Made by a program: the position numbers and the translations under genes
Shown: positions 4,168 to 31,971 of the stretch, one piece after another
Numbering within the stretch: the first letter of the stretch is position 1
Layout of the letters: every line of letters begins with the position of its first letter
Source: Yuukianura sp. NJ FZ-2021
Taxonomy: Eukaryota
Length of the DNA stretch: 64,000 nucleotides
Direction: 5' to 3'
Assembly: GCA_046563655.1 (NCBI GenBank)
Contig: CM102286.1
Coordinates: 4,154,001-4,218,000 of the forward strand
Notes under the pieces: generated by a model
Told to the model about the DNA's origin: nothing
The model's input: only the letters and a program-made list of their open reading frames with translations
The model's database searches: none

Positions 4168-5239
4168 TCAGTTGAAGAATGTTCCTTCCAATGATATAAG
4201 ACTTTGTCCCTTGATACAAATGCTATCACCGTCATGCGTAACGTGAACGTCTCCAGATCTTGGGGATGCAAATCTGCTCAGCATTTGCTTATGTTCAGTT
4301 CCCAATTTGTTACTCCAATATGGCGCTAGCATCTGATGTAACGATCCACAAGTTTCATCCTCATTTATGTCAACCCATGGAGCAAAGAATCGAGAATAGA
4401 ACGTCGGTAATTGATTTCCTGTCTGATTGTTCTGAACTGTCACTCCAAGGCCAAATACGTCCAAAGATTCTGGAACAGCTTCCACCATCCCTTTGAAATC
4501 AGGACGAAGACTCCAAAGAAGTTCTTCAGAGGTACAATCCGGAGATGCCTTCAAGACTATAAGAATTTTCTGGGCAAGGGCGGAGTAAAGTACAACTTCA
4601 ACCAATGATTGGATAGACTCCGATCCATGACCGAATACCGTCTGGAGCAATCCTGTCACCCATGGATTCTGTTCTAGATTAACAGGTTGTCCAGGAAACG
4701 CGGGCAGTTTGATGGAAATGAGGCCACGCTCCTTGTCGTAGTTCAATTCCAAGTTAAGTCCTATACGGATCTGAAAGATGATGGTTGTTAGTTCTGGATT
4801 TAGTTTGGAAAAGACGATGGTTGCTGCCGCTAGAGCTCCGTGACCACAAATAGTCAGTTCCTTGTTAACTGAAAACCAGCTAATGGTGAACTTAGCGCCG
4901 CTTGCGCAACTGTCGTCAGTTGCGTTCCATCCGCGACTGACGAAAACCGTCACCGGTTGGTTCACTTCTACTGCAATTTCACGTTTTCTTTTGTCATCAA
5001 TGTCATCCTTAAAATGAAAAAAGAATTGAAACATATGTAATTAAAATGTATAACAAATGTATGTAATATATTTGAAAAATGTATATTTGTTGCACTTCTA
5101 CGGGACAAAGTTAAAAATTTATCAAAAATAGATTTCATACGTCGCGGTTAAGAATAACTACTGCCGCAGGATTTCCAGTGACATCCTTCCTGTTTTTGGT
5201 TCTCGTAAACGCATCAACAAAGTACACTGGAAAATTCAT
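4168..5239 (-). CDS. PhzF/PBLD-family (DAP-epimerase fold) isomerase-like protein, 2 exons
   Basis: Exon 1 is 5239-5141 (MNFPVYFVDAFT...GNPAAVV). Exon 2 is 5007-4168 and contains ELTICGHGALAA, SRFFAPWVDINEDETCGSLH, LAPYWS and ASPRSG. Confidence 0.9.
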
Positions 5240-8909: not shown

Positions 8910-9360
8910 TCACGGTTTAACAACGATGCACCGATAGTTACATCCCCTTGAATAGTTTTCGCAACAAACTTGACCTGCTGCGCATGGATTAGATTGGCAC
9001 GGACTGACGAAACATTGGTACCTCGTTTTATACGTTGGGCATTTGTTAACGCAAATTTGCCCACACTCGTTTGGATTAGCACAACAAAATTGGGACTCCG
9101 GGCAAGCGTTGTCCAGACAAATCCGAAATAAGCATTTAAATGGTACTGTTGAGGTACGATTTGACTTTGGACATGAACGCACCCGAACACGACCCCTCTC
9201 TAAAACAAAAGTTAAGGTTAGCTAACTTTTGATTATCGAATTTAGTCACGCTCAAATCGTTAATTCACTTTAGCTTACTTTTTCCTTTGCAATTGCTGTC
9301 TTGAAAGTTTGCCACAACAAAAAGCAGCAGCATCGTCCAGAAAATTAACTTGGATGACAT
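8910..9360 (-). CDS. Secreted double-WAP-like cysteine-rich peptide, copy 4
   Basis: Exon 1 is 9360-9279 (MSSKLIFWTMLLLFVVANFQDSNCKGK). Exon 2 is 9199-8910 (KRGRVRVRSCPKSNR...), 2 x 8 Cys. Confidence 0.88.
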
Positions 9361-9784
9361 TTTCGTTGAAGTCTTTAGAAAATCTCTACTTTGCCGGGAA
9401 CTCCATGGTTAAACTTGAATTTTCCCTCTTTCTTTGTGCTGCTTTTTCAACCTGCCGTCATATAAATTGGGACGCTTTGTCATTGTCTAAATATTTTGCG
9501 AAAACAATAAAAATGAAGACCTAATTCAATATTAACTCTACAGTGACCTAATCACGTCACTTAATCCTTTATTTAAAGAATAACACAGTCTTCAAATTCG
9601 ATTTGAAAAATTTCATGATAGTTTAACTAAAAATAATAATATGAAGCTTAAAGATGAAAACATTGTCTAATGGATATTTATATCGCTTAATGCTAAGAGA
9701 TTAGAAGTACAAGGAGTCAATTGGCGACATTTTGGTTCAACTTTGAATATTTTTATTGTAGCAGAGAGACTGGGTCAACTTTGT

Positions 9785-10918
9785 TCAAAAAATTGATCCA
9801 TATATTGTTATCACTGCCAGGAAAAGTTTTATACCGTTCGTAATTTTTAGAATACTCGAGGAACTAGTATATGCTTTAAACACAGGCATTACAACCAGTT
9901 TTTGTTTTGGGTACAGAACAAATGCCGTTTTTTGAATGTCTTCTTTATGAAACTGCCTTAGGATTCCAAGGGTACCCAAGTCATAGGATTCAGAATGAGC
10001 CCCAGTAGTTTCGTATCCAATGATGTCCAGAAGATCATATCCAGTTTGTACCGCCGGAATGTTCGGAGCACATCCCAAGGTCACATGAGCTTTGGAAGTG
10101 GATGGCTGGAAGTTTACTGGTTGATCCACAAAAGCAATTACCGGGTAATCTGGATCCGCTGCCCGTTTTTTCCGGATTTGAGTTCGTGATTCTTCTTTTT
10201 CAAATAGCGGTTCCTGGTCTGCCGTTAAATTTACACGGATTCCGTATGTTCGCGCGGTAAAGTAGAAGCCGATGAGGTGCGTCATAAAATGATTGCCCAA
10301 AGAGTCCTTAGCTGTTTTATAATACTCCGTACAATCAATTCCGCCGCCGCAGTACTTAGCTGTCACATGGTAAAACGGGTCGTGGTTTAGCGTATTGGGG
10401 TCCACGGGCTTGACGAAGTAATTGAACGGGTCACTTGCACCCACGTCCTTCAAAAATTCAACAACGCTTGGTATGGTGGAATACAATTTTCTGAAAATAT
10501 GATTGTCTGCGTAGTCTTCTAGGGTTGCTGCAGTCGGCTTAGACAGAAACCAGCCAAAGTACAAAACGTTTTGCAGCTCCGCACTTTCGGTTTCATTTCT
10601 CAAAACCTCCTTACTTTTGGTCTCGACAGAATTTGCGTAGAGCATGATGATGCTCACGAGAATCTAAACACAAAATTCATTTTTAAAAAAGTAAGATTTT
10701 GGTCTAATAGTTGTCTACTTTTTGCAGTGAAATTTTTGGCTTATTGAATTTTCAAAAGGAAGTCTGTATAGTTTACTTTTTGTGTCAAGTTGTATAATTA
10801 AAATATTGTTCCTCTTAAAACGACATGGTTAAAACAACAATTCCATCGTCACTGCATGAAAAAAAAAACTGTTAAAAAATTGTGACAAAATTTTGTTATA
10901 GTATACCACTTTCAACAT
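9785..10918 (-). CDS. 2',3'-cyclic-nucleotide 3'-phosphodiesterase (CNPase)-like 2H phosphoesterase with signal peptide and hydrophobic C-tail, copy A
   Basis: A 12-nt first coding exon 10918-10907 (MLKV) joins exon 10663-9785. Motifs LYFGWFL, YHVT, TARTYG and KAHVTLGCAPNIPAVQTGYDLLDI match the vertebrate CNPase catalytic domain. Confidence 0.9.
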
Positions 10919-11559
10919 GATGATCCAATGCAAACGCTACTGAAACTTTTAACTTGATGTGATGATTGTGCAGTTCACTTCACCTTACGATTTTGTGCAA
11001 GTCAGTGACCTTGACACTTATTTGACCTTTGACCAAGTGCAGAAGCCAAGTAAAACGAAAACTATTTTTGCTGTGCCAAACACGCGCTGTGTTTAGCAAT
11101 TTTAAATTTAATATTTAATCTTGCAGCACTGAATTCGAGCAGTTCGGAAGAATAATCCCAATCCCTATTCTCTTCTGTATAATAATTTTTCAAATCTAAG
11201 CCTTTTATTCTTAGAAAACAACAAACGCAAAAAAACTTCGATTTGATTTACGTAAGTTCGAGCGTCAGACTTTCTTGTTGTTTTCTGCTCTTCAAAAAGA
11301 AAACTTGGAAACTGATTATTAATTTTTTTGCTACAAGTTTTAGTTAAAGACGTACTTCTTGGTTTTTGCTGTGGTAGATCTGTGGATGCATCATGAAACC
11401 ATAACATATCCCGACCTTGAGAGAATTCTGCTATTCAATCATCGTGGCAAAAAAGAATCATGTGAAACTATAGAGTCGCTTGGTTGTGTGCCTATGAGTA
11501 ATCGGGTTGTTTTGTTGTGCAAAATTAAAGCAGACAGAGTCACCTTAGTTACGATGATG

Positions 11560-11670
11560 ATACCGCTTTTGTAATAAGGATCCGCTTTTGTAAGTATCCT
11601 CTTTTGAAGGGTACGAATTTGTATAGTAGCTTTTGTAAATTATCCGCTTTTGTAGGAGTACGATTTGGTA
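11560..11670. repeat. Short degenerate tandem repeat (tccgcttttgta-like) at the CNPase duplication junction
   Basis: Units include taccgcttttgtaa, tccgcttttgtaa, tcctcttttgaa, gcttttgtaaa and tccgcttttgtag. Confidence 0.65.
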
Positions 11671-11785
11671 TTAGAAGTTAGATTTCTAAAATTAGAAGTG
11701 CAAGGAGTCAATTCTCAATTGGCGACATTTTGGTTCAAGTTTGAATATTTTTATTGTAGCAGAAAGACCGGGTGGTGAACTTTGT

Positions 11786-12879
11786 TCAAAAAATTGTTCC
11801 ATATACTGCTATCGCTGCTAGTAAAAGTTTTATACCGTTCGTAATTTTTAGAATGCTCGAGGAACTAGGAACAGTGTCGTATGTTTTGAACACAGTATCT
11901 ACAACCAGCTTTTGTTTAGGATACAGAACAAATGCCGTTTTTTGAATGTCTTCTTTATGAAACTGCCTTAGGATTCCAAGGGTACCCAAATCATAGTACT
12001 CAGAATGAGCCCCAGTAGTTTCGTATCCAATGATGTCCAGAAGGTCATGTCCAGTTTGTACCGCCGGAATCTTCGGAGCACATCCCAAGGTCACATGAGC
12101 TTTGGAAGTTGATGGCTGGAAGTTCACTGGTTGATCCACAAAATCAATTCCCGGGTATTCTGAATCCGCTTCCCGTTTTTTCCGGATTTGAGCCAGTGAT
12201 TCTTCTTTGTCAAATAGCGGTTCCTGTTCAGCCGTTAAATTTACACGGACTCCGTATGTTCGCGCGGTAAAGTAGAAACCGATGAGGTGCGTTTCAAAAT
12301 GCTTGCCCAATGAGTCTTTAGCTGTGTTGTAGTACTCCGTGCAATCAATTCCGTCGCCGCAGTACATAGCTGTCACATGGTAGTACGGGTCGTAGTTTAG
12401 TGTATTGGGGTCCAAGGGCTTGACGAAGTAATTGAATGGGTCACTTACACCGACGTTTGTCAAAAATTCAACAACGCTTGGTACGCTGGAATACATCGTT
12501 CTGAAAATATTTTCCGTGTAGTTTTGCAGGGAAGTTGCTGTCTGCTCGTCCAGAAACCAGCCAAAGTACAAAACGTTTTGCAGATCCGTAGTTTCAGTTT
12601 TCAAAAACTCCTCATTTTTTGTGTCGACAGCATTTGCAGAGAGCATGACGATGCACGCGAAAATCTAAAAACAAAAATATGTTTTCAAAAATCGTAAGAT
12701 TTTGATCTAATAGAGATCGATCGATATGTTACCTCTCTACAATTTACAGATTTTGGCTTATTGGATTTTCGAAATTCTAATTAAATCATTGATAGTCTAA
12801 AATTGGTACGGTTAAAAGCCAGTAAACCATATCAAAAATGTTACGACAAGAAAAAAAAATTTTATACCACTTTCAGCAT
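11786..12879 (-). CDS. CNPase-like 2H phosphoesterase with signal peptide and hydrophobic C-tail, copy B
   Basis: Exon 12879-12868 (MLKV) joins 12664-11786 (IFACIVMLSANA...). Both HVT motifs are intact and it is a clear paralogue of copy A. Confidence 0.9.
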
Positions 12880-14392
12880 GACGACCTAAAGAAAACGCTA
12901 CTGAAACTCTTGAGTTCATAAAAGATGTTTTGTGCCGTTCACTTTACAATTTTGTGCACGTCAGAGACCTTGACACTTATTTGACCAATTGCAGAAGCCA
13001 AGTAAAATTAACACTAAGTTTGATTTGTGACACATACACGCTCGATTTGGGAGTTTAAATTTAATATCTAATCTTGCAACATTAAATTCGAGTACTTCGG
13101 AATAATAATCCCATTCCAGATTCTCTTATGGCAGTTAATTCCGCAAGCCTAAGCATTTTGATTCTTAGAAAACTACAGCAAACGCAAAAAAAAATCGAAT
13201 TGGCTTACGTGATTTTGAGTGTCAGAGTCAGAGTTTCCTATCCTTTTTCAGCACTTCAATTTTAAGAAAATTGGGTACGTGATGATTAATTTTTTGAAGA
13301 TGTACTGCTTGACTATCGTATGATCTGTGATGCACCATGAAACTAACGTCTCACGACCTTGACAGGGCTTCTGCTGATGAATCATCCTGGCAAAAAGGGA
13401 ATCATGCGAAAGCGAAAGTTGTAGAAGCGCTTGGTTGTGTGCCAATTGGAAATTCAATTGTTTTGTTGTGCCAATTTGAAGCAGACAGAGTCACCTTGGT
13501 TACTTTAGGCATAAAGTTTGACTCTATATGAGGAATACAGGAATAACGGTAAACTCCCCCACAATTTCCGGCCAAGTTATAGCAATACCAAAGGGGCGAT
13601 AATTTTATATATTTTTGATATTTAGGAGGGGTAGTTCCTTTTATAGTCAGCTTTTGGCACTGCAATGTTTGCTACAGATATAAAAATATTGTAGTTTGGC
13701 ACGAAGTAGTACTACGGTGTAACAAGATTCACATTCAAGATCACATCCATTCATCGACGGAAGACAGAAAGTTCACTTCATCATCATCATGAACGTGAAT
13801 TTGGTACTTACAAGGAATCATACGGGTAAGAAAAGAAAAGCGTCATAATATGGGGGGCGATTTTGCACTATAATTGGCAAAAAAAAATTAGTTTTTTTTT
13901 TCATAACTTTCACACTTGCACAGAAATGGTCAATATTTAGCATTTGAAAAAACCTGTGTTTCCCTCTTCCTTAAACGTTTTTGTAAATGTTTTATGAAAA
14001 AGTTCATTTTTATTGCTATTATCGTATTTGGAAGTTCACAAAAACTGGTAATTTGTTACGTTTAGTCCTTAAAGTGTTACTGCTGCGCGGTAGTTCAATT
14101 TTGAAGGAACAATTCTGAAGAAAAATTGTTTTTTCTTTGCTTTCTTTCATGTTTTTTTGAAAAACGAATTTGAAAAGTTTTGATAGTATAGATTGATTTG
14201 CTGACTCTGCTGATGGTTGCCCCTTCACAGTTTATCCCTCAATGCAGTTTTCCTTGAAATTTTCTATGGAATTGCAATTTGCAATTTCGTAATTCTATAA
14301 CACGTAACTGATTTCAGTCTGAAATGAACAGATCCATTAAGCCAACACTGTCAGAAGTAAAGAAAAGCCGAGAAGCGGGTTAGCTAAATGCA

Positions 14393-15289
14393 ATGGACTA
14401 CGGGTGGCGTTTTGAGATGCATCCAGGTAATTTATAATTAAATACTTACAGTTATTATTAACATGGGTTAAATGAAATTGTTATGTATTACTAAGAACTG
14501 GTTGGCTAATTTAATGTCTTGATTTCAAAAGCACTGGAGTTAACCCCACCGAATCCTACGACAGCGTCTCTGAAGATTCCGTATTCCGTAAATTCTCCAA
14601 AATTGACGCAAGTTGTAACCGGGAAGAATTTCCACTACTTCAAACTTCGCCTCTACGACATCAATGAATTTTTCTTACAGCAGAAAAAATCCTGGAACCG
14701 TAACTACCCTCCAGCACAGCAGATTTATTCAGATAGTCCCATCTCCGTCGCTCTTCGCGCCGCGATTCACACCGAACATGCCATTTTGTACTCGAATCGT
14801 GAAGGAAGAGGTGGGAACGATGATGGATTCCTGGACCGATCTCCAAATGCTTTCTTTGACCTCTTGGAACACTTCCAAAATACAAAGTCCGTCTTCTCTC
14901 CAGTCCATACTGCAGTGAAGGAAGTGAGTTCTAAACTTATAGGATCCAAGGACACAAAAGACAAAATCCGGATTTATACTTATGTGTTGCTGGACGATTC
15001 CCTAAGATTTTCTCGATCTGGTGCTGGAACAACTGTGGATTTTTCATCTAAGCATGCACTTCATGCTGGAGCTGCTACAGAAGTTCATTACGCTGGAGAA
15101 TTTTGGGTAGAAAATTCACCAATAGAAGGTCGAGTTTTGTATGTGGACAACAATTCAGGAACGTTTGCTCCCCCGAAGGAGGATTTATGGCGGATGAAGT
15201 CTTTAATGGAGCGGAATTTTCCTGGAATTCCAATAGTTGTCCTGGACTATCAAGATCCACTCTGGAAGTACAAACGAGGAAAACAATGA
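14393..15289 (+). CDS. Uncharacterised HxxH..AGEF..DNNSGT protein resembling the C-terminal domain of fungal/protist C2-domain proteins
   Basis: The main exon ~14532-15289 contains SWNRNYPPAQQIY, IYTYVL, SKHALH, YAGEF, VDNNSGTFAP and ERNFPG. A probable first coding exon 14393-14426 (MDYGWRFEMHP) splices in frame, but its acceptor is weak, so the start is uncertain. The family assignment is from memory of motifs. Confidence 0.75.
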
Positions 15290-15621
15290 AGATAGGAACG
15301 CAATGTTACATGTACGATAGTGTTTTTCTAATGGAAGCTGCTCAATTTGTGATTAATTTGTAGCGTTTGATAAATGTTGCAAGGAAAACGTGATAACTTA
15401 AAGGTGATATAGGCGGGAAAAGACATTACACATAGGTTATTATCCTTTACATTCTTTCAAACAAATAGTTCAATTTGTTTAATTTAATGAGTTTACACAT
15501 AATAAAGTGACGCAAGCAAGATACTTAACAATGGATTGCTAATTTGTACATTCCACGTTTTTAAAAGAAATGACAAGTCAGATTTAAATAACTAACAACA
15601 TGCGCATGCGTAACGCCAATT

Positions 15622-18427
15622 TCAGTCTTGAGATGCTTCATGGCTACTGGAATGTTTCTTGAGTGCATTTAATATCCAATCTTGACTCTTGTAATGATCA
15701 TCCAAAATGCCCGGTTTAGGTATAATATCTAAGAATTCGTTACTTCGGGCATCTAAAATTTTAACTTCGTACGAATTTTCCAGACCTGCATCATTATTCC
15801 TAGGACAAAGTTTAGAATTTTTAAAATTTTTCAAAAGTCATAAAGTTTCAGATTTATCTTACTTTTCTGCGTTCGTTTTATCAATATAAATGATTCTCCC
15901 TGGTAAATACATATTGATTTCATCGTCTTTCCTAGTGCTTCTTGTAGCTTGATAATTTTTTTCAGTCCATTTCGAATGTAGATCACTTTCACCGAATTCC
16001 ACGGACGAATCAGTTATATGACCCTGCAAAAAATCGTACAGATAAGTGCACCAAACGTAGATACTTAAAGCCATACTTTGAAACTCACTTGGTTAACGTG
16101 TCCGTTGAAATCGATTTCTTTGGAAGATACTGTGACTTTTAGTTTAAATCCCAAGAAACGCAAGAGAACGCCAAGCAGCAACTTGTACTGAAAACAAAAT
16201 TAAAACAACAACAACAATATTTTCATCGCTTATTCTCCAAAAGATTTCGACGAAGCGCTGGAAATTACTGAATTTCAGTTACACCTTGGGGGTTTTGGCA
16301 TTATACATTCCATCAATGATGCGGTGCCTCAATCTGGAGATTGCTAGCAAGTTGGCACGCGCGAACAAGTCATTCCCACACGTTACTGATATGATAAAAT
16401 TTTCGCTATATCTTGCAGCATCGGAATTAAGTAGGCCTCCTAAAACAAAAAAAAATCAAATTCCTCGCGAAAAATGAAAACAGAAATGTTGATCTTGCCT
16501 GGAGGATTAAAACAGATCACTCGGAGCTCAAGAAATTTTGAACGTAGCCTGAATCCCAGTAATGCGGCGACGCCCGATCCAAAACTGCTGCCTATAATGA
16601 GAACAGGTTGGCTGGTAAAAGTAAAAATAATTCCAATTCACATTCCAAAAGTTTTACCAATTATGACTAGATTGTAATTTGAGTGGCGTTTTTTAATTTC
16701 TTCAAGGACAGGAACCACATTTACTGATAATTTTTCCGAAACTTTGTTTAATCCTCCATGAACCTAAATGTTGATAGAATTCGAGTAAACTCAAAGCATT
16801 ATAACACAGACAATTTCATTTTAAAGCAGTATTTACCTGAAAATTTGTTGCTGAACCTGGAATGTATAAAGCAGCAGCATCCATAAAAGATAGAAGACTC
16901 TGTCCAGGAAGGACAACAAGAACAAGTGAATTCGAGTTGTGGTCAACGAAAATACAAAAAGGAACTTCAGTGTAGCTGGTTTTAGTTGACACATGAATTA
17001 AATCCGATTCGGAGATTCCAGTCGCCGTGACTGCAGCTATGAGGCTGGACATTTTACACGTTTGGCAAAACCCGTTGGCATCAAATTGCGAATCACAGTC
17101 ACTAAAAATAACAACATTAGTCAAAAATTCAATTTTACTTAATGTTCTCTTCATGTTTTTTTTTTCAACTTTTTCCATTACCTTGCAGGAGCAAAACAAT
17201 TGCAAGAGTTGATAATTCTAGAGAAATTGTGTTGATGTTGAGCATCCATTTGTCTCGCCCAATTATGAGATCTGTCGGTGAAAGGAAAATATTTTTCAAA
17301 CTGCAGCACTTGCATGAAGGTCTCGGAAGTCCAACTATCCATGCTGCAGGACAATTCGTCGGAATTGGCATTCTTTCTATTGTGCATTTCTTGTAGAGAG
17401 AAACTTTCAAATTTGGTTTCAGGTCCTGCGCAGAGGGAACTTCCATGGCTTCCTTGGTCTTCTTCCAATCGAAAAACTAAAAACAGTCCCGCAACCAAAT
17501 CGGAACTGACGAAATTCGTTTCGCCAAGAACAGACGAAACAGTACCCCCAATAGCTTGGAATATTTGCTGTTCATCTTCAACGCGAGATCTAGGTTTGTA
17601 CAATATTGAGCAGTACATTTTCATTTTCTTGGCCCAGAACTGCGTCTGCGCTTCACTGAACTCTTGTTTCTCAAGCTTCAATCCTCCAAGTGGATCGTAT
17701 AAAAATGCGAAGAAAAGAGCCAAAACAATTAATGAAATCCAGTTGCAAATGATATAACCTGAAAAAAAAACACAAAAACAAGAGTAAAAATGATAAGACT
17801 TACAGGTACAAACGTGTACTAATTAATTAAGGGAACTTTTAGAAGGTCAAACCACTTACGACGAGTAAAGTAATAAGACGAAGGATCATGAATTTGTACA
17901 GTAGCAAAGGTAGGGCCGAATGCCCAAATGGTACCAAGCGTATTCCAGCCAGTATCGACTGCTTCCCAGAATAATCTACACCGAAAATGTGAAAAATGGA
18001 AAATTACATAAAATTAATTTAAAATCCTGTAACGCGGATATCGGATCTTACCGAATGTAAACCAGCGTCGGTATAATGGCTCTGAGATGCGTTTCGGTAA
18101 TTGAGCCTTTTGAACTTCGATTTACAACTAACAAATCCGTCATAACAATTATGACCAAGGACGCCATCATTCCAACGAGATAAACTTCGAACTTTTTTCG
18201 GTTTTCGTAGTCTTCAACTTGCATTTGAAAGTACGCAAGTAGAGCAGTAATGAGCCTGTCAACAATAAAATAAAGTAGTACTGATGCAAATTAAAAATTT
18301 ACTAAAAACAATGTGAAAAAGAAAGTTCTTACCAACACGATTTAACGATTGTGTCAAGAATTCCAGGGAAAACGAAGTCGTCAGTGCCGCAGAGCCAGCG
18401 ACGACCAAAAGCAACAACGGCAGGCAT
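15622..18427 (-). CDS. Diacylglycerol lipase (DAGL-beta-like, lipase class 3), multi-exon, divergent
   Basis: N-terminus MPAVVAFGRRWLCGTDDFVFPG. Also YDPLG, FVSSDLVAGL, PFCIFVDH, the spliced nucleophile elbow IIG-SSFGSG, GNDLFAR, YLPGRIIYI and ILDDHY. Confidence 0.88.
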
Positions 18428-19323
18428 TCCGCAAAATCGTTTTTACACATAAATCATCCTGTTAAATCGAAACTAAGCAGCGATTTTAATGTCGATGCAC
18501 ATTAAAATCGCTGACCACAAGGAACGAACTCAATAAATTTAACCCGGACGCCTAATTTTTTGTTTCAATGACTCTGAATTCGAGTTTTTGAATCAATGGG
18601 GACTACTACTACACAACAATAATTCAGGACTATTGAATTCAATGGTTGTTTTGTAGTATCTACTACAACTGGTTTGACTGTGGCCCTCATGCAGAACTTC
18701 TTACGAAACAGTTTGGACATCAGCATTATCATCATCACCCCTGCAGCTTAATACTAACTTGCCCTTGTAATCGCCAAAAAATCATTCTCACGTGTATAAA
18801 CTTAAATCACAACCTGCCCAATGGCTCCCCGTCCTCTCTACTTAAGTTACAACAAAAAAGGAAATGTGGAAACAAGTCTCAATTGTTCCCATTGGGTGAA
18901 TAGTAAGGTAGACGACATGAATGCATGAGTACTTGGACTGCCGTGAATGTTATGACATTGAACTCAAACGTTTTTGAAAGCTAGACTGCAAAAAAGGTGT
19001 GTCAAATCGTTTCACCTTAGGTGACGACCTCGATTCTCAAAGACATCCAAAGATGAAGATCATTTTCAGGGTTTCCCGTCGAGTAATGTAAAGAATTTCA
19101 AATTATGATTTTAATAAATGTCGAAAGTAAATAAATCAGAGAATATTAGAGCGGGACTTATCTGAGTATCGCAGTTTACGACGATGGTTCGACTATTCCC
19201 GTGGCGAAGATGCGTTTAAATGCTATAGCAGGATACTGGATACTGTTACAAGAAACTTACTCTAAATGTCAATTAATCGGAATCCAATAGAAGCAAGGTC
19301 AAGTGACGGGTGGCACTGACTCA

Positions 19324-20526
19324 TCAAATCTTGATCTTTTTCGCAGGCGTTGCTTTGCTGTCATCATCTTCAGAGTCACTGCTACTCACGTCAGAGTCAA
19401 GGTCTTCGTCAAGCCTGTGAAGTATTTCCGCAAAAAAAAACACATATTAGCACCTCGCCTAATACACAAGAAGTGCTAAACCCTAAAACATGAGCAATGA
19501 ATTTTCGGTGTCAGTAGAACAATCGTTGATAGCTGTGTAAAAAAATGTGTTCGAATTGAATAGAAAAAAACTTACATCGTCTTCTTCAAAGCCGGCATTT
19601 TACGTTTAACTTCTTTGGACGGCACTGGTTTCGGAACAGTACTTGATTCAATTCTGCCGTCGTTGACATCGTGCGGCTTTTCTTCTGCCTGTTTGGCATC
19701 TTCATCGTCTTCTGACGAAGTCGATGTGGAACTGGCCGAAGCTGAAGTGACTGTACAGTTTCCAGATTTACTCTTACTGGTCGAAGGAGCTTCAAATCCT
19801 AATAAAACACACCGAAACAAAACATTTAAGAAAAGTTACGCCTTGGCCTTGTGCCTCCCCGCCTGCGAATTTTGATTTGATAAGCAACACTTCAAAAGCA
19901 ACTAGAAATAGTACCCTTCTCGACGGCCTCAAAAATTGCATCGGACATTTCTGCTCGAACTCGGTTGTATTCTTTGTCCTCCATCTTTGGAAGCGGAGGT
20001 CCATCGCAGATTTGTCGAAGCTTCTCCAGCTTCTGCTTCTTCAGTTCAGCCCTCTCCTCGTCCCGCTGCTTCTGCTTCGCAAACCAACGTTTGAGTCGTT
20101 GTTCTTCATTGATATCCCGAAGACGCCTTCCAGATAAATCACGACAAGCATCCCTGTTTGTAGTTTTTTCAATTTGTGCTCCAATTGCCCTCAGCATAGA
20201 CCCAAAACCTACAAACGAATGGACACTTGATATAACGATAAAACAACAATAATACGAAGATCACAATTCTAGTTAACTTACCTCCTTTGCCTCCCAGCAC
20301 GCGGGGAATAATATGAACAGGAAGACCAGTGGGCATAATGGATAGTGTTTGCTGATTCACTATCTTCCCGTTACAAACAAGATAAAACGTTCCGGGCTCC
20401 AAATTCTAATATTAAACAACAAGAAAATTTAAAAACCACACCAAATTTAAGTTTACGAAGGATAAAATCGTACATTTAACTTACCATTATAATGTCAGCT
20501 GTTGTTTCACCGTGATTAAAAGACAT
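19324..20526 (-). CDS. SDE2: SDE2 splicing/replication-stress factor (~257 aa, 5 exons)
   Basis: [46 protein letters not shown]. Exons 20526-20485, 20405-20282, 20208-19915, 19798-19576 and 19414-19324 are phase-compatible. Confidence 0.92.
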
Positions 20527-21271
20527 TTTTACGGTGAGTGGTTTAACTCCCCGTAATTAACCTTTACTGTCGCTTTGCCTCGAACAAATTGATGTTCAGT
20601 CGAATGCACTACCTCGACGTCGTCACAAAAATGACGAGTTAATTAATTTACTTAACTAAAAGGAAAACAAATTAAGAAAACGAAAATTACCTTCCGAATT
20701 AAGTCGGAGGGAGAAGTGCGAGAGGGAGAGCAGAAAAATCAGCAGACCGAGTAGGCTTTTGATATGCAGACAGCTTGGCGCCAAGTTTAAGTTAAATTTC
20801 CTCAATTCGGTTTTTGCTAACTGGCAATTCCAAAGTACTTTTGCAGAGCAAATGCCAAAGGAAAATAATTAAATTTCACACGCACGACAGAAGCATTTAC
20901 AACTTAAATACTAGGCATAAGTATATTCGGATTTTACTCGTTTCGTTTTTTCAGACAAAACCGAATTTTGTCCATCTTATTCGGCTTTATTTATTAATCT
21001 AGTGATAGTGAATATTACGAACAAGTTACTAAAGAATATCCAGCGACCCTGACAGCAACAACCCCCAATTTCGGTTAAATTTTTTAACAATTATTAAGGC
21101 ACAATACCTCGAGTACGCAACGTTAACAGGGAAAATTGACGTTGAGTCAGCATATGTGAGTGAGAGTGGTTGTGCTATAGGCAAAAAAAGCATCAACTTG
21201 AAAATAAATTTTTACTATTTCGGACAAAAGGGACGAAGCATTCCGTATTTACTTTTGCGTTTTTGCTGAGA

Positions 21272-23080
21272 ATGGCATTTCAAGTTTTGGTATTCTGGCG
21301 ATTTATGGTTTGTTTACATGGTTGACAAGAATTTTCTTGAGCTTACTTTACCTACTAAACTAAACTTTAAACTTTGAACCCGTGCTGGAATGTAAGCAAA
21401 TTAAATTGAAACCTAACTTTACGGCTCATCAATTCAGTCAGGCCACTGTCACTGTCGCCATCGGCAATTGGGAAAATCCTTCGCCTAAGTATTCTTATTT
21501 GGAACTGTGTATACCAATGATAATTGGCCGTATCTTCTGCAATACAGCTACTAGGGGTAAGTCGGTTGTCGGTAAATGTTAACTTTGAATGAATTCGCTT
21601 TCAATCAGGTTTCCGTATTCGAAATTGAAGTTATAAGTTATAACTTATTTAACGAGCCCATAACAGCTTATCTTTAATCTTTATCTGATTTGGGTACTCA
21701 ATTAAGTAGTACATCAATTCGTTCACGGACGGTATCGTTGGCTGAACACCGTCGGAATTCTTGGAGCGAGCGTTTGCCATACAATTAAAGGAAGCGTAAT
21801 GCCACGCCACAGTGAAGAAGCGGTTGTAGAATTTTCGGCTTTGAAAGTAATAGTTATCCCAGCCACTGCAGATAACTTTATGTATTTGGTAAGCTAACCA
21901 CCTTCAATACTGTCACAAGTTACACTTTATGATATGAAAATGATGAGATTTTCTTTGTGTAGGTGATGGACAAGGAATCGCGGAAAGCTTTCGTTGTAGA
22001 CCCCGTGGAACCGGAATCAGTTCTCTCGGTCGTGAAGCGGGAACAAGCTGTACTGACTTCAGCGCTGATTACTCACCATCATTGGTAGGTTGGTACCAAA
22101 TTCTTGGAATGTAACACAATTTATACATACTTTATGCGTTTTGCCGGAACTTTTAGGGATCACGCAGGAGGCAACAACAAGCTTCTGGAATTGCACAACT
22201 CGGATCATACGACAACAGATCAGCTAAACATTTACGGCGGAGATGATCGTATCGACGGTTTAAACAAGAAAGTATGTTTAAATAAATGCTTCTGGCTTCT
22301 CTTAGGAGGCTTAATTTTGGCATCCTTATTCCATATTTCAGGTTGTGGACGGTGACATGATTTCGATCGGGAAAATGAGAATTCGCTGCTTGTTTACACC
22401 ATGCCATACACGTACTACGAAAATTTACGACTATTATTTGCCAATAATTTTACATACTGCCAATTTTTCAGGTGGGCATATCTGCTACTTTGTAGACTCG
22501 GATGACCTCGCGTCGCAAAGTCCGTTAGTGTTCACAGGTAGGATTTTTTGTATTGCAAGGTTTAGAACGCAGTTTTAAGTACGTTTACGTTAGGTCTACT
22601 ACAGTTTACTAATATTTGTCGTTAATTCAGGGGACACCTTGTTCGTAGCGGGATGTGGTCGGTTCTTCGAGGGCACTGCAGAAGAGATGGAAAAAGCACT
22701 TAACCATGTCCTTGGAAGTCTTCCGAAAGAAACAGTAACCGATGATTTTTTTTTAAAACTTCATATAGAATTCTGTTGAACCGAGAATAACATGTTCCCT
22801 TCACCGTTTTTAGCTCGTCTTTTGTGGCCATGAATATACTGTTCAGAATCTGAAGTTTGTGCTTTCAGTTGAAAAAGATAATGCGGAAGCAAAGCAGAAG
22901 TTAGAATGGGCAGAAAATATGAGAACCGTTAAGCATGCCACCGTTCCATCAACAATCGGAGAGGAGTTGCGATACAACATCTTCATGCGTTCCAGTCTTA
23001 AATCTGTCCAAGCATTAGTCGGTGCGTCTGGACCAGTGGAGTGTATGGCCAAACTCCGAACAATGAAGAACAACTTCTAG
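21272..23080 (+). CDS. HAGH: Hydroxyacylglutathione hydrolase (glyoxalase II), multi-exon; start codon uncertain
   Basis: DNFMYL, VVDPVEP, spliced [53 protein letters not shown] and LRTMKNNF*. Candidate ATGs are at 21272, 21517 and 21799. Confidence 0.92.
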
Positions 23081-23692
23081 AAACAGCAAAGCTAGCCAAC
23101 CAAGTATAAAATTGTCATGAATTCGAAGAGATTTGGTCAAAGTTTTCAATTTTCCAAAGGTAAACCGGTGAGCCAAGAGGATGGTTTTCCTAACATGATA
23201 CCACGATACCAGATTTCCACTGTATAAAAAATTAGTAAAACCGATCAACTATTTTTCTGATTCAACTATTGAGTTCATCTGTTCTTTCTTGAACGGCTGA
23301 AGATTCGTTTCAGGAATCATGATGTTTTTTTTTGGGCTTGCACCCTGAAAACTGGTTTTACAGAATTTTTTGACATTTTTTTTTGTAATGACAGCACAAC
23401 CTGGAAACGGAATAGCTTTTCCTATTGGCCAGAATGTAGGTTCTTAACTGGAAAAAAATGTTGCATCACACCACTTTGTAAAATTCTTGAAGGTCACTGT
23501 GATGTGGAATCTTTTAAGACTGGTTCCAGTAACTCATTCAGCTTGACCTCCAAAAAATTCTCGAAAAAGAGCATGAAGTTTTTCCAGTTTACCACTTTGC
23601 AATTGGAGTTGAATCTTTCTAGATTTGAGCTTCGATTCTGCCTTCAATTCATCGTCGCTGAACTCTGACCTGTCTATTTTGCAATTAAAAAT

Positions 23693-24500
23693 ATGTTTGT
23701 AACACAAGGAGACGTTAAGGTAAGCGAAAATTTTTATTCCAATTGGATATGTTTAATCTTTTTTCAAAGTTCAAAAAACCAACCATAATTTTGTTTGATG
23801 TTTCAGTATTTGTCAGGCTTTGGTTCTGAATTTGCCAGTGAAGATCCACGATGTCCGGATTCTCTACCGAAAGGACAAAACAATCCGCAGCGGTGTCCCT
23901 ACGGTCTATACGCTGAGCAGCTCTCTGGGACAGCTTTCACAGGCAAGTCCTAAATTTATACTATTAGAGCTTATGAGTGTCAGTTTTGAATAGAATCGGT
24001 GTAATTTTAACGAAAAATGGCGCATTTCAATTATTTTTGAAATTTCAAGCTCCCCGGGCGTTTAACAAAAGATCTTGGTTGTACCGTATTCGTCCATCCG
24101 TGCTCCATGAGCCGTTTGAAGCTGTCCAGGAGACAGCAGAAAACAATGGAGAAGTGAAAGTACTTCCAACTTTCTCCAACTTCCCACCCGAACCAAACCA
24201 GGTCTGTGTAACAAAAAAGTAAAGCGGAGTCATTTAGATCTCCCAAGCTGTGAAAAGCGGAACATCGCTGTCGCTTCCCACTGAATACAACAAAAGAGGC
24301 GTTATGAGTCCTAATTAATAATGGTCTGATTTGTTCATTATTTAGATGAGGTGGTTTCCATTTGACCTGCCGACGACCCAGCGAGTAGATTTTGTTGATG
24401 GACTCAAAACCATTTGTGGAGCGGGAGATGTTCACAGTCGGAACGGACTCGCAATTTACATCTACGCTTGCAATTATTCGATGGAGAACAAAGCCTTCTC
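23693..24500 (+). CDS. HGD: Homogentisate 1,2-dioxygenase, 5' part only (cut by the assembly gap)
   Basis: [63 protein letters not shown] and MRWFPF...DFVDGL. Confidence 0.92.
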
Positions 24501-24600
24501 NNNNNNNNNNNNNNNNNNNNNNNNNNNNNNNNNNNNNNNNNNNNNNNNNNNNNNNNNNNNNNNNNNNNNNNNNNNNNNNNNNNNNNNNNNNNNNNNNNNN
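24501..24600. other. Assembly gap (100 N)
   Basis: Run of exactly 100 n. Confidence 1.
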
Positions 24601-25522
24601 TTCTTTATGAAACTGCCTTAGGATTCCAAGGGTACCCAAATCATAGTACTCGGAATGAGCCCCAGTAGTTTCGTATTCAACGATGTCCAGAAGGTCATGT
24701 CCAGTTTGTACCGCCGGAATCTTCGGAGCACATCCCAAGGTCACATGAGCTTTGGAAGTTGATGGCTGGAAGTTTAACGGTTGATCGACAAAATCAATTC
24801 CCGGGTATTCTGAATCCGCTGCCCGTTTTTTCCGGATTTGAGCCAGTGATTCTTGTTTGTCAAATAGCGACTCCTGTTCAGCCGTTAAATTCACACGGAC
24901 TCCGTATGTTCGCGCGGTAAAGTAGAAGCCGATGAGGTGCGTTTGAAAATGTTGGCCCAAAGAGTCTTTAGCTGTGTTGTAGTACTCCGTGCAATCAATT
25001 CCGTCGCCGCAGTACATAGCTGTCACATGGTAGTACGGGTCGTAGTTTAGTGTATTGGGGTCCAAGGGCTTGACGAAGTAATTGAATGGGTCACTTACAC
25101 CGACGTTTGTCAAAAATTCAACAACGCTTGGTACGCTGGAATACATCGTTCTGAAAATATTTTCCGTGTAGTTTTGCAGGGAAGTTGCTGTCTGCTCGTC
25201 CAGAAACCAGCCAAAGTACAAAACGTTTTGTAGATCAGTAGTTTCAGTTTTCAAAAACTCCTCATTTTTTGTCTCGACAGCATTTGCAGAGAGCATGACG
25301 ATGCACGCGAAAATCTAAAAACAAAAATATGTTTTCAAAAATTGTAAGATTTTGATCTAAATACATATCGATTAGCTCTCTACAATTTACAGATTTTGGC
25401 TTATTGAATTTTCGGAATTCTAATTAAATTATTGTTAGTCTAAAATTGGTACGGTTAAAAGCCATTAAACCATATTAAAAAGGTCACGACAAGGAAAAAG
25501 TTTTTTATACCACGTTCAACAT
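24601..25522 (-). CDS. CNPase-like gene (counterpart of copy B), 3' end cut by the gap
   Basis: Exon 25522-25511 (MLNV) joins exon 25314-24601. Both HVT motifs are present. Confidence 0.88.
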
Positions 25523-27045
25523 GATGACCTATTGAAAACGCTACTGAAACTCTTTACTTGATAAAAACATGCTTGTGCCGTTCACTTTACAATTTTGTGA
25601 GTGTGTCAAGTCAGCGACCTTGACACTTATTTGACCAATTGCAGAAGCCAAGTAAAATTAACACCACGTTTGCAGTGTGACACATAGATGCTCTGTTTGG
25701 GATTTTAAATTTAATATCTAATCTTGCACCATTAAATTCGAGTACTTCGGAATAATAATCCCATTTCATATTCTCTTATGGCAGTTAATTCCCCAAGCCT
25801 AAGCATTTTGATTCTTAGAAAACAACAACAAACGCAAAAAAATTCGAATTGACTTACGTGATTTTGAGTGTCAGACTCAGACTTTCTTATTCTTTTTCAG
25901 CTCTTCAATTTTAAGAAAATTTGGTACGTGGTGATTAATTTTTTGAAGATGTATTTCTTGACTTTCTCTGTCGTATGATCTGTGATGCACCATGAAACTA
26001 ACGTCTCATGACCTTGGCAGCGCTTCTGCTGATGAATCATCCTGGCAAAAAGGAATCATGCGAAAGCGAAAGTTAGAATCGCTTTGGTTGTGTGCCAATT
26101 GGAAATTCAATTGTTTTGTTGTGCCAATTTGAAGCAGACAGAGTCACCTTGGTTACTTTAGGCTTAAAGTTTGACTCTATATGAGGAATACAGGAATAAC
26201 CGTAAACTCCCCCACAATTTCCGGCCAAATTATAGCAATACCAAAGGGGCGATGATTTTATATATTTTTGATATTTAGGAGGGGTATTCCTTTTATAGTC
26301 AGCTTTTGGCACTGCAGTATTTGCTACAGATATAAAAATATTGTAGTTTGGCACGATGTAGTACTACGGTGTAACAAGATTCACATTCAAGATCACATCC
26401 ATTCATCGACGGAAGACAGAAAGTTAACTTCATCATCATCATGAACGTGAATTTGGTACTTACAAGGAATCATACTGGTAAGAAGAAAAGCGTCATAATA
26501 TGGGGGGCGATTTTGCACTATATGTAATTGGTAAAAAAAAATTAGTTTTTTTTTTCATAACTTTCACACTTGCATAAAAATGGTCAATATTTACCATTGG
26601 AAGAAATCGTTGTGTTTCCCTCTTGCTTAAACGTTTTCGTAAATGTTTTATGAAAAAGTTCTTTTTTATTGCCATTACCGTATTTGGAAGTTTACAAAAA
26701 GTGGTACTTTGTTACGTTTAGTCCTTAAAGTGTTACTGCTGCGCGGTAGTTCAATTTTGAAGAAACAATTCTGAAGAAAAATTGTTTTTTCTTTGCTTTC
26801 TTTTATGTTTTTTTGAAAAACGAATTTGAAAAATGTTGGTAGTAGATTGATTTGTTGACTCTTGTGGTTGTTGCCCCTTCACAGTTTATCCCCAATGCAG
26901 TTTTCCTTGAAATTTTCTATGGAATTGCAAATTGCAATTTCGTAATTCTATAACACGTAACTGATTTCAGTCTGAAATGAACAGATTCATTAAGCCAACA
27001 CTGTCAGAAGTAAAGAAAAGCCGAGAAGCGGGTTAGCTAAATGCA

Positions 27046-27944
27046 ATGGACTACGGGTGGCATTTTGAGATGCATCCAGGTAATTAATAATTAAATACTT
27101 ACAGTTATTATTAACATGGGTTAAATTTAATTGCTAATTATGCACTTAAGAACTGTTTGGCTAATTTAATGTCTTGATTTCAAAAGCACTGGAGTTGACC
27201 CCACCAAATCCTACGACAGCGTCTCTGAAGATTCCGTATTCCGTAAATTCTCCAAAATTGACGCAAGTTGTTACCGGAAAGAATTTCCACTACTTCAAAC
27301 TCCGTCTCTACGACATCAACGAATTTTTCTTACAGCAGAAAAAATCATGGAACCGTAACTACCCTCCAGCACAACAAATCTACTCCGATAATCCCATTTC
27401 AGTTGCTCTTCGTGCCGCGATTCACACCGAGCATGCCATTTTGTACTCGAATCGTGAAGGACGAGGTGGGAACGATGATGGATTCCTAGACCGATCTCCA
27501 AATGCTTTCTTTGACCTCTTGGAACACTTCCAAAACACAAAGTCCGTCTTCTCTCCAGTCCATACTGCGGTCAAAGAAGTCAGTTCTAAACTTATAGGAT
27601 CCAAGGACACAAAAGACAAAATCCGGATTTATACTTATGTGTTGCTGGACGATTCCCTAAGATTTTCTCGATCTGGTGCTGGAACAACTGTGGATTTTTC
27701 ATCTAAGCATGCACTTCATGCTGGAGCTGCTACAGAAGTTCATTACGCTGGAGAATTTTGGGTAGAAAATGCACCAATAGAAGGTCGAGTTTTGTATGTG
27801 GACAACAATTCAGGAACGTTTGCTCCCCCGAAGGAGGATTTATGGCGGATGAAGTCTTTAATGGAGCGGAATTTTCCTGGAATTCCAATAGTTGTCCTGG
27901 ACTATCAAGATCCACTCTGGAAGTACAAACGAGGAAAACAATGA
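27046..27944 (+). CDS. HxxH..AGEF..DNNSGT protein, second copy
   Basis: The ORF-track 256-aa translation differs from 14519-15289 at two residues. The same upstream exon (MDYGWHFEMHP) is present. Confidence 0.75.
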
Positions 27945-28294
27945 TGAAGATTGGAACGTAATGTTACATGTATGATAGTGTTTTTCTAATGGAAGCTGCT
28001 CAATTTGTGATTAATTTGTAGCGTTTGATAAATGTTGTAAGGAAAACGTGATAACTTAAAGGTGATATAGGCGGGAAAAGACATGACACATAGGGTATTA
28101 TCCTTTACATTCTTTTAGGCAAATGTAAATAGTAATAGTTCAATCTGTTGGCGAAATTTAATGACTTTGCACAAAATAAATTGACACAAGCAAGACACTT
28201 AACAATGGATTGCTAATTTGTACATTCTAAGTTTTCGAAAGAAATGACAAGCCGGATTTAAATACTAACAACATGCGAACGCGTAGCGCCAATT

Positions 28295-31102: not shown

Positions 31103-31971
31103 TCCGCAAAATCGTTTTCACAAATACATCGAACCTAAGCAGCGATTTTAATGTCGACGCACATGAGAATCGTTGACCACAAGGAACGAACTCAATAAAT
31201 TCAACCCGGACGCCTAATTTTTTGTTTCAATGACTCTGAATTCGAGTTTTTGAATCAATGGGGACTACTACACAACAATAATTCAGGACTATTGAATTCA
31301 ATGGTTGTTTTGTAGTATCTACTACAACTGGTTTGACTGTGGCCCTCATGCAGAACTTCTTACGAAACAGTTTGGACATCAGCATCATCATCACCCCTGC
31401 AGCTTAATACTACTTGCCCTTGTAATCGCCAAAAAATCATTCTCACATGTATAAACTTAAATCACAACCTGCCCAATGGCTCCCCGTCCTCTCTACTTAA
31501 AGTTACAACAAAAAAGGAAATGTGGAAACAAGTCTCAATTGTTCCCATTGGGTGAATAGTAAGGTAGACGACATGAATGCATGAGTACTTGGACTGCCGT
31601 GAATGTTATGACATTGAACTCAAACGTTTTTGAAAGCTAGACTGCAAAAAAGGTGTGTCAAATCGTTTCACCTTAGGTGACGACCTCGATTCTCAAAGAC
31701 ATCCAACGATGAAGATCATTTTCAGGGTTTCCCGTCGAGTAATGTAAAGAATTTCAAATTATGATTTTAATAAATGTCGAAAGTAAATAAATCAGAGAAT
31801 ATTAGAGCGGGACTTATCTGAGTATCGCAGTTTACGACGATGATTCGACTATTCCCGTTGCGAAGATGCGTTAAATGCTATAGCAGGATACTGTTACAAG
31901 AAACTTACTCTAAATGTCAATTAATCGGAATCCAATAGAAGCAAGGTCAAGTGACGGGTGGCACTGACTCA

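Follow-up and report, generated by a model that had tools for sequence, protein, structure and literature searches.

What does a CNPase catalytic domain do when a gene encodes it alone, between a hydrophobic start and a hydrophobic end? The question is raised by two neighbouring minus-strand genes, g1 (9785-10918) and g2 (11786-12879), in a stretch of 64,000 nucleotides from Yuukianura sp. NJ FZ-2021 (GenBank assembly GCA_046563655.1, contig CM102286.1, positions 4,154,001 to 4,218,000 of the forward strand), which we call the window and whose first letter is position 1. Each gene has two exons, and all features of g1 and g2 given below lie on the minus strand. We consider it rather probable that the two genes are tandem paralogues, both active, and that within the CNPase family of 2H phosphoesterases they represent a distinct branch belonging to the secretory pathway. 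An export signal combined with a membrane-anchoring tail would mean that they probably act on RNA-breakdown nucleotides outside the cell.

The assignment to the family follows from several comparisons. Both proteins match the Pfam family CNPase (PF05881) far above its cut-off of 25 bits (g1, E 2.8e-20, 73.3 bits; g2, E 1.2e-18, 67.9 bits), and the Pfam scan of g1 and g2 returned no other 2H family and nothing else of note. A profile of the clade of relatives described below, run against the PDB sequences, found 23 distinct chain sequences, all of them CNPase or goldfish RICH (best E 6.1e-36). The AlphaFold2 model, calculated from a 24-row alignment, reached a mean predicted local distance difference test score (pLDDT) of 86.3 and a predicted template modelling score (pTM) of 0.78, with a confident domain at exon-2 residues 33-266 and a loop below a pLDDT of 50 at exon-2 residues 157-167. 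Every Foldseek match listed at ranks 1-50 was a CNPase or RICH catalytic domain, with a probability of 1.00 and a target-normalised TM score of 0.68-0.82. A comparison with the ESM Atlas gave a best score of 0.79, below the useful range, and led to tRNA-ligase CPDase and 2H-SAK clusters only.

The active site appears complete. A preliminary description of this DNA had proposed a tandem pair of CNPase-only 2H genes with two HVT motifs each, and indeed we found two intact minus-strand open reading frames (ORFs) in which HVTA and HVTL are both preserved. In g1, the first HxTx motif, HVTA, lies at 10358..10369 (H103 and T105, equivalent to mouse H230 and T232) and the second, HVTL, at 10076..10087 (H197 and T199, equivalent to mouse H309 and T311); in g2, the corresponding motifs are found at 12368-12379 (HVTA) and 12086-12097 (HVTL). 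In mouse CNPase, His230/Thr232 and His309/Thr311 act in catalysis, Phe235 and Val321 in base stacking, Tyr168 at the ribose and Arg307 through electrostatics (PMC4643303; this and the papers below are cited from part of their text). The g1 counterparts of mouse Tyr168, Phe235, Arg307 and Val321 are Y39, Y108, K195 and V209, a mapping that we checked on the alignment with human 1woj and in which the Tyr-to-His spacing of 62 residues matches the numbering of that paper. Across all 98 rows of our family alignment H103, T105 and H197 are invariant, and T199 is either T or S. Within the 21-row clade that contains g1 and g2, position 39, covered by 18 rows, is Y or F in all of them, position 108 is Y or F in 21/21, position 195 is K or R in 19/21 and position 209 is V in 19/21. 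Because both catalytic and substrate-binding residues are kept, g1 and g2 are predicted to be active 2',3'-cyclic phosphodiesterases.

Could the same site serve a different chemistry outside the cell, acting mainly on signals like 2',5'-oligoadenylate (2-5A), on cyclic dinucleotides or on ADP-ribose 1'',2''-cyclic phosphate? The clade has an inter-lobe loop of considerable length and variability, and other 2H enzymes do cleave 2-5A (PMC8406329), but every residue with which mouse CNPase binds a 2',3'-cyclic nucleotide is kept, and the nearest relatives in sequence and fold (Foldseek ranks 1-50) are only CNPase and RICH, so that we regard a change of substrate as improbable. The low-confidence inter-lobe loop (pLDDT <50) of g1 and g2 also carries a dibasic RKKR motif (10163..10174 in g1, 12173-12184 in g2). 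In form, RKKR resembles a site for proprotein convertases. Relatives do not conserve it, and if the protein is secreted, cleavage into two chains might occur.

Equally informative is what the two genes leave out. Just 33-37 residues precede the CNPase domain in g1 and g2, the minus strand of the whole window holds no Walker-A motif (all four matches lie on the plus strand), and the larger ORFs neighbouring g1 and g2 contain no kinase or other Pfam family. Neither protein has a CaaX box, g1 ending in ...IYGSIF and g2 in ...VYGTIF. Ends of the CaaX type occurred solely among matches of the vertebrate type. The earlier contrast with vertebrate CNP, which has a PNK-like domain and a CaaX end, is borne out, and it is well supported that g1 and g2 encode a CNPase-family 2H domain alone, with intact catalytic motifs.

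Which N-terminus does the domain then receive? The exon-2 ORFs of g1 (9785-10663) and g2 (11786-12664) comprise 292 codons plus a stop codon each (TGA at 9785-9787 in g1) and encode the whole CNPase domain and the hydrophobic tail. Each opens right behind a TTTAG acceptor, and six hydrophobic codons, the putative end of a signal peptide, precede the first internal Met. The missing start would be supplied by a very short first exon, which we inferred by comparing the copies in the window with one another and with relatives. Its coding part would be ATGTTGAAAGTG (MLKV) at 10907..10918 in g1, followed by a GTATAC donor, and ATGCTGAAAGTG (MLKV, with a Leu codon synonymous with that of g1) at 12868..12879 in g2, followed by a GTATAA donor. 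The predicted phase-0 intron of g1 (10664..10906, 243 nt, GTATAC...TTTAG) would interrupt the putative signal peptide itself; that of g2 (12665..12867) is 203 nt long, and in both genes the terminal TTTAG is followed by ATT. Use of another in-phase donor, 3 nt farther upstream (MLK or AAA, then GTGGTA), is equally possible and would remove only the Val. The candidate 12-nt first exon of the preliminary description is present at its proposed site in both genes; exon 1 may hold 9 or 12 coding bases. Spliced in the longer form, both products would be 296 aa long.

The surroundings of the predicted exon are conserved as well. All three copies in the window (a truncated third copy, g3, is described below) keep ATG-YTG-AAM-GTG before GTATA, the acceptor and a TCAGT element 23 nt upstream of the ATG, while the introns vary by insertions and deletions. 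TCAGT, which we take to be the arthropod initiator consensus, lies at 10939..10943 in g1, its A 23 nt upstream of the ATG, and a motif match is found at 12900..12904 in g2. Downstream, polyadenylation-like AATAAA signals follow the stop codons by 27 nt in g1 (9752..9757) and by 30 nt in g2 (11750..11755). A 52%-identical relative, the metagenome locus L001, shows a similar arrangement: its ORF begins directly behind the acceptor ttttctgtag with the hydrophobic stretch FGVAVPILGI, and as no Met precedes the catalytic domain in L001, translation there must begin in an upstream exon. This exon could be MMW before GTAAAG, with a 107-nt intron, or MDTRSIAALK before GTAGTT, with a 413-nt intron.

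The predicted spliced N-termini, MLKVILVSIIMLYANS in g1 and MLKVIFACIVMLSANA in g2, combine a Lys-containing n-region with an h-region of 9-10 residues and ANS or ANA at positions -3 to -1, a reading that depends on the predicted 9-12-nt exon. The C-termini are SSSSILKITNGIKLFLAVITIYGSIF in g1 (9788..9865, residues 271-296) and SSSSILKITNGIKLLLAAIAVYGTIF in g2 (11789-11866; shorter form ...LLLAAIAVYGTIF). In both proteins, the mean Kyte-Doolittle hydropathy exceeds 1.6 solely at residues ~1-16 and over the final ~13. As the preliminary description had noted, the C-terminus consists of small residues and then a hydrophobic end: SSS stands 25-26 residues from the end in an SSSS stretch, followed by the 9-residue spacer ILKITNGIK and 13 uncharged residues that close the protein. 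Small residues, a spacer and a hydrophobic end form the textbook shape of a glycosylphosphatidylinositol (GPI) signal, as a rule of thumb. In the tails of the clade, the uncharged run measures 8-18 residues and is followed by 0-15 more.

A different anchor or address for the same secretory enzyme has to be weighed here: the tail might be a single-pass membrane segment, or the protein might reside in the endoplasmic reticulum (ER), in the lysosome (e.g. beside lysosomal RNase T2) or in another lumen. In the AlphaFold model, the tail takes the form of a helix (exon-2 residues 276-291), and some relatives carry longer uncharged runs followed by charged residues (20 residues and KQKL in P0171, 18 and QRD in P0003). 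In g1 and g2, the run has just 13 residues, follows a Lys and ends the protein, which looks short for a stable membrane span, and most clade tails have small-residue triplets 22-32 residues from the end, which fits GPI signals. We therefore consider such an alternative anchor or address unlikely, though not negligible.

Is this architecture confined to the window? To place g1 and g2, we searched 1.84 billion representative sequences with HMMER, which gave 169 proteins at E <=0.001, took the best 150 of these 169 and added earlier matches and cluster members. The profile of the first alignment was matched by 176 sequences, 104 of which covered at least 70% of it; after removal of 6 near-duplicates, 98 rows entered the tree. 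We sorted the rows by a hydrophobic N-terminus behind the Met, a hydrophobic stretch in the last 22 residues, a P-loop and a CaaX end. This yielded 58 rows of the PNK and/or CaaX type, among them vertebrate CNP and RICH with the end ...KKKKPKCTIL and P-loop fusions of invertebrates with the end ...FTGxY, 25 rows that bear a signal and/or a tail, and 15 unclassified rows.

g1 and g2 fall into a clade of 21 rows from Collembola, a sciarid fly and unnamed contigs, with a support of 95 in the Shimodaira-Hasegawa-like approximate likelihood ratio test (SH-aLRT) and with identities of 35-52%. Nine of its rows have both signal and tail, nine only the tail, one only the signal and two neither; in total, the tail is found in 18/21 and a signal-like N-terminus in 10/21. 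The nine tail-only rows are ORF calls on metagenome or Logan contigs that start inside the domain or have 0-19 residues before its first motif, one of them with a 97-residue unspliced read-through. Being incomplete ORF calls, for reasons that L001 illustrates, they are uninformative about the N-terminus. The named gene models of the clade, from Allacma fusca, Orchesella dallaii, Orchesella cincta and Bradysia odoriphaga, show a signal-like N-terminus in 4/4 and a tail in 3/4. A sister pair from Allacma and O. cincta lacks both features (support of the joint clade, 100). Of six metagenome loci, only L001 belongs to the clade; three of the others, L002, L005 and L006, were checked for a tail and are tail-less. 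As side observations, the Bradysia odoriphaga protein P0005 groups tightly with P0003 of the springtail Allacma fusca (SH-aLRT 99), and whether transfer or contamination accounts for a family member in a fly may be worth checking; Collembola proteins occur in three sub-branches of the clade, and the family seems expanded in springtails.

Elsewhere in the tree, Daphnia pulex/pulicaria and the nemertean Lineus longissimus likewise have forms with signal and tail, and Tubulanus has a signal-only form. Constraining all signal-plus-tail forms to unite gave p 0.129 in the approximately unbiased (AU) test, by which a single origin is neither rejected nor shown. Arthropods have the PNK-fused type too (Schistocerca, Thrips palmi, Macrobrachium and Meganyctiphanes), and their possession of both this type and the putative secretory type bears on the evolution of CNPase.

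If the domain is made in the secretory pathway, its surface may record this. Over the catalytic domain, 20 clade rows contain 106 NxS/T sequons, where 46.3 would be expected from shuffled sequences (~2.3-fold enrichment), as against 51 observed and 63.7 expected in the 58 PNK/CaaX rows. The median number per 100 aa is 1.86 in the clade and 0.34 in the PNK/CaaX rows (Mann-Whitney p 2e-10). One position, an NLT sequon at 10223..10231 in g1 (N149) and at 12233-12241 in g2, is shared by 9/19 clade rows and by 0/5 outside rows. A second trace is the cysteine pair that the preliminary description had recognised in a YCGxGIDC motif, which reads YCGGGIDC in g1 (10331..10354; the predicted base-stacking Tyr108, equivalent to mouse F235, with Cys109 and Cys115) and YCGDGIDC in g2 (12341-12364). 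Cys115, the second Cys of YCGxxxxC, is present in 21/21 clade rows and in 0/58 PNK/CaaX rows, and its likely partner Cys109 in 21/21 and 32/58, respectively. The nemertean secretory forms have both cysteines, Daphnia neither. Such a distribution agrees with the acquisition of a disulfide when the domain came to enter an oxidising compartment. Taken together, the signals kept in relatives, the sequon enrichment and the clade-specific second Cys give the putative secretory topology good but indirect support. The ecto-enzyme proposed earlier is supported in part, strongly in its assignment to the CNPase family and indirectly in its secretory topology, with the GPI anchor and the substrates as proposals.

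These traces also bear on the proposal that the proteins are cytosolic, tail-anchored CNPases that start at an internal Met without exon 1, insert their tail post-translationally and are functional analogues of the prenylated vertebrate CNPase. Such a start is conceivable since exon 1 is a prediction. Furthermore, vertebrate CNP and RICH are attached to membranes through their C-termini, RICH by a C-terminal membrane localisation domain (PMC10463786), and CaaX-like ends occur among the family matches. But in g1, g2 and g3 alike, the hydrophobic extension of the ORF stretches precisely as far as the acceptor and the copies differ in it by conservative hydrophobic replacements, the domain of L001 is preceded by no Met whatsoever, and the named gene models of the clade consistently have signal-like N-termini. 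Neither the sequon enrichment nor the clade-specific Cys would be expected in a cytosolic domain, and 13 residues are short for a tail anchor. We judge a cytosolic location quite improbable.

Several points nevertheless count against a secretory, GPI-anchored enzyme. The signal-peptide and GPI calls are rule-of-thumb readings by eye, and the predicted junction of exons 1 and 2 rests on sequence comparison. The donor sites of g1 and g2 are weak (4-5/9 consensus positions), and translation from the in-frame Met at residue 11 (MLYANS...) could yield a signal-less protein. Over the signal peptide and the tail, the ratio of nonsynonymous to synonymous divergence (dN/dS) between g1 and g2 is 0.82 and 0.76, near neutral, which is usual for such signals and proves nothing. 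g1 and g2 have only two sequons each (0.7 per 100 aa), at the low end of the clade, and three Cys in the predicted mature protein, an odd number. The sequon and Cys statistics overstate independence because the clade rows share ancestry. A GPI signal and a short C-terminal membrane segment are indistinguishable here, and so are surface and lysosomal or ER residence. Finally, substrate and direction of ring opening are read across from the mouse enzyme only.

Are both genes functional? g1 and g2 share 78% of their protein sequence (229/295 columns) and 87% of their DNA over ~1 kb, and with a dN/dS of 0.48 overall and 0.40 over the domain, at a synonymous divergence (dS) of about 0.21-0.23, both look functional. 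In addition to the tandem pair of the preliminary description, the window contains a third, gap-truncated copy: the first 238 codons of exon 2 of g3 (24601..25314, minus strand) abut an assembly gap of 100 N (24501..24600) that removes the 3' part of the gene, and the coding part of exon 1, ATGTTGAACGTG (MLNV), is predicted at 25511..25522 (minus strand), with TCAGT at 25543-25547. g3 is far closer to g2 than to g1 (dS 0.079 to g2). Around it, 11951-24499 and 24601-37145 form a 12.6-kb repeat of 94.9% identity that begins exactly at the 100-N gap; DNA contigs running past 24499 carry on as the sequence from 37146 onward, and contigs left of 24601 carry on like the 3' part of g2. The repeat thus looks like two haplotypes placed in tandem, by which g3 may be the other allele of g2 and is probably a haplotype duplicate rather than a separate gene. 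Over 22500-26500, run X3 (labelled 'DNA?') alone shows five joints, four of them GT..AG, at neighbouring genes, and may for this reason hold spliced sequence; its contigs cover part of g3 exon 2, e.g. 24994-25209. No contig over 22500-26500 joins g3 exon 2 to exon 1, and the gap of X3 over the intron is not evidence.

That g1 and g2 themselves are decaying duplicates or an assembly artefact without function would agree with the position of g3 at an N gap, with the tandem-haplotype appearance of the repeat and with a constraint that is moderate only (dN/dS 0.48). Both genes, in turn, lie in gap-free sequence as full ORFs with all catalytic residues, their promoter, splice and polyadenylation motifs are conserved, and the domain stands at a dN/dS of 0.40; we find this explanation hardly credible.

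The favoured secretory reading can be laid out as a sequence of steps. An initiator-type promoter would drive a transcript whose very short first exon encodes Met-Leu-Lys(-Val), and the spliced N-terminus would act as a cleavable signal peptide, cut after ANS16 (g1) or ANA16 (g2) by the -3/-1 rule. The CNPase domain would be made in the ER lumen, where the conserved NLT would be N-glycosylated and a disulfide between Cys109 and Cys115 would probably stabilise the fold. A GPI anchor would then replace the C-terminal signal, whose omega site would lie within SSSS, and leave the catalytic domain on the outer face of the cell. There, as in the mouse enzyme, the two HxTx motifs would convert 2',3'-cyclic phosphates into 2'-phosphates: by analogy, H197 would activate the water, H103 protonate the 3'-O, Tyr108 and Val209 sandwich the base and Tyr39 contact the ribose. 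Cleavage by RNases of the T2 and A types results in 2',3'-cyclic phosphates, and likely substrates would be extracellular 2',3'-cyclic nucleoside monophosphates (2',3'-cNMPs) and cyclic-phosphate RNA ends from secreted RNases. Ecto-phosphatases would take over the products, so that nucleosides are salvaged or adenosine is produced. Tethered to the surface, the CNPase domain would carry out the initial reaction of this route outside the cell, in the service of salvage or of signalling.

About 60 years after CNPase became known, its physiological role is still called enigmatic (PMC10792529); in mammals, it has been linked to a pathway from 2',3'-cAMP to adenosine in which extracellular adenosine is used, with the enzyme itself intracellular (PMC7246452). 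We found no literature report of a secreted, GPI-anchored or arthropod CNPase, subscription journals lying outside our coverage, and the part of PMC5434554 available to us, on the evolution of CNPase and tRNA-healing enzymes, makes no mention of insect, arthropod, invertebrate, signal peptide or secreted. The earlier statement that no description of this topology is known agrees with the literature that we searched and has to be amended for the databases, which contain proteins built in this way, entered as 'CNPase-like' or as unnamed predictions, from Allacma fusca, Orchesella dallaii, Bradysia odoriphaga, Daphnia pulex/pulicaria and Lineus longissimus. The window is therefore not alone in having this architecture, which several invertebrate genomes share as predictions that await study.

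We speculate, as a tentative and possibly mistaken extension, that these proteins form an old, undescribed hexapod branch of CNPases, possibly with crustaceans and nemerteans, and that they would be the first 2H phosphoesterases of the outer cell surface, clearing extracellular 2',3'-cyclic nucleotides and cyclic-phosphate RNA ends towards nucleosides or adenosine. If this were true, 2',3'-cyclic phosphate chemistry would be handled outside animal cells as well, by a 2H enzyme, and invertebrates would have a dedicated step that removes RNase products and damage signals and, in the boldest version, quenches extracellular nucleotide immune signals too. Breakdown products of extracellular RNA would then come into view as nutrients or signals in arthropods, and biochemistry would gain a small, PNK-free and naturally exported CNPase domain.

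The remaining features of the window are recorded here in their own right. Some 560 nt downstream of g1, a Cys-rich ORF (8913-9221, minus strand) gives a weak match to the WAP four-disulfide core (E 0.0049, below the Pfam cut-off) and may encode a small secreted protein. A single-exon ORF of 290 aa (4171-5040, minus strand) matches the PhzC-PhzF (phenazine biosynthesis-like) family (E 1.4e-29) and had no close relative at E 1e-20 in a collection of 5.8 billion proteins. On the plus strand, 22814-23077 and 23789-24498, with copies near 35.4-37.1 kb, hold hydroxyacylglutathione hydrolase (HAGH_C, E 1.3e-28) and homogentisate 1,2-dioxygenase exons (HgmA_N, E 1.4e-18, 2.7e-09 and 4.3e-17), the latter gene being interrupted by the N gap. 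Within the 12.6-kb unit, there are also paired ORFs of 259 aa (14510-15289 and 27165-27944, plus strand) and of 213-214 aa (17178-17822 and 29858-30499, minus strand) that match no Pfam family. Further along, an ORF of 698 aa (43246-45339, plus strand) matches Lig_chan weakly (E 0.00099, below the cut-off) and may be an ionotropic-receptor-type gene. This weak match and the relatives of g1 and g2 are our grounds for calling the window genes arthropod-type. No tRNA genes were found in the window.

How do g1 and g2 compare with known systems? Vertebrate CNPase (CNP1/CNP2) and fish RICH belong to the same Pfam family and share with g1 and g2 the 2H fold, both HxTx motifs, the equivalents of Tyr168, Phe235, Arg307 and Val321, ~30% identity over the catalytic domain and, as predicted for g1 and g2, membrane attachment through the C-terminus. 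The differences concern the two ends and the compartment: vertebrate CNPase, which is cytoplasmic or mitochondrial (PMC7246452), has an N-terminal PNK-like domain and a CaaX box, whereas g1 and g2 have a signal-like N-terminus, a GPI-signal-like tail and an extra Cys, in a clade enriched in sequons. The invertebrate PNK/CPDase-type proteins (the lancelet tRNA-healing enzyme and the predictions from Schistocerca, Thrips palmi, Macrobrachium and Meganyctiphanes) have the same catalytic domain, with 29% identity between the locust protein P0040 and the window protein, but carry a P-loop kinase domain and a ...FTGxY end without a hydrophobic tail, and the window genes stand in a separate clade. 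The role ascribed to this type is the intracellular healing of RNA ends (PMC5434554).

Closest in architecture are the automatic predictions from Allacma fusca, Orchesella dallaii and Bradysia odoriphaga, which, like g1 and g2, consist of a signal-like N-terminus, a CNPase domain only and a hydrophobic tail. Daphnia pulex/pulicaria and Lineus longissimus show the same architecture at a greater distance, outside the hexapod-type clade, and the look-alikes of Tubulanus polymorphus and Orchesella cincta have the signal and no tail. With regard to the reaction, mammalian CNPase turns 2',3'-cAMP into 2'-AMP en route to adenosine (PMC7246452), and in Drosophila a metallophosphodiesterase opens 2',3'-cAMP to 3'-AMP (PMC10547211). 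Among plants, phosphate-starved tomato cells have an extracellular cyclic-nucleotide phosphodiesterase, described as an accessory to secreted RNase that feeds phosphatases (PMC12369478, citing Abel et al. 2000). The proposed logic of RNase, 2',3'-cNMP opening and phosphatase is the same as for g1 and g2, while the protein family is unrelated or unidentified. The bacterial periplasmic CpdB is a metallophosphoesterase that yields 3'-NMP, and unlike the proposed g1 and g2 products, neither CpdB nor the tomato enzyme is known to be a 2H enzyme or GPI-anchored. The animal ecto-nucleotide enzymes CD73 (ecto-5'-nucleotidase) and alkaline phosphatase are GPI-anchored and thus have the topology and the pathway context predicted for g1 and g2, with different folds and reactions and no homology to be expected.

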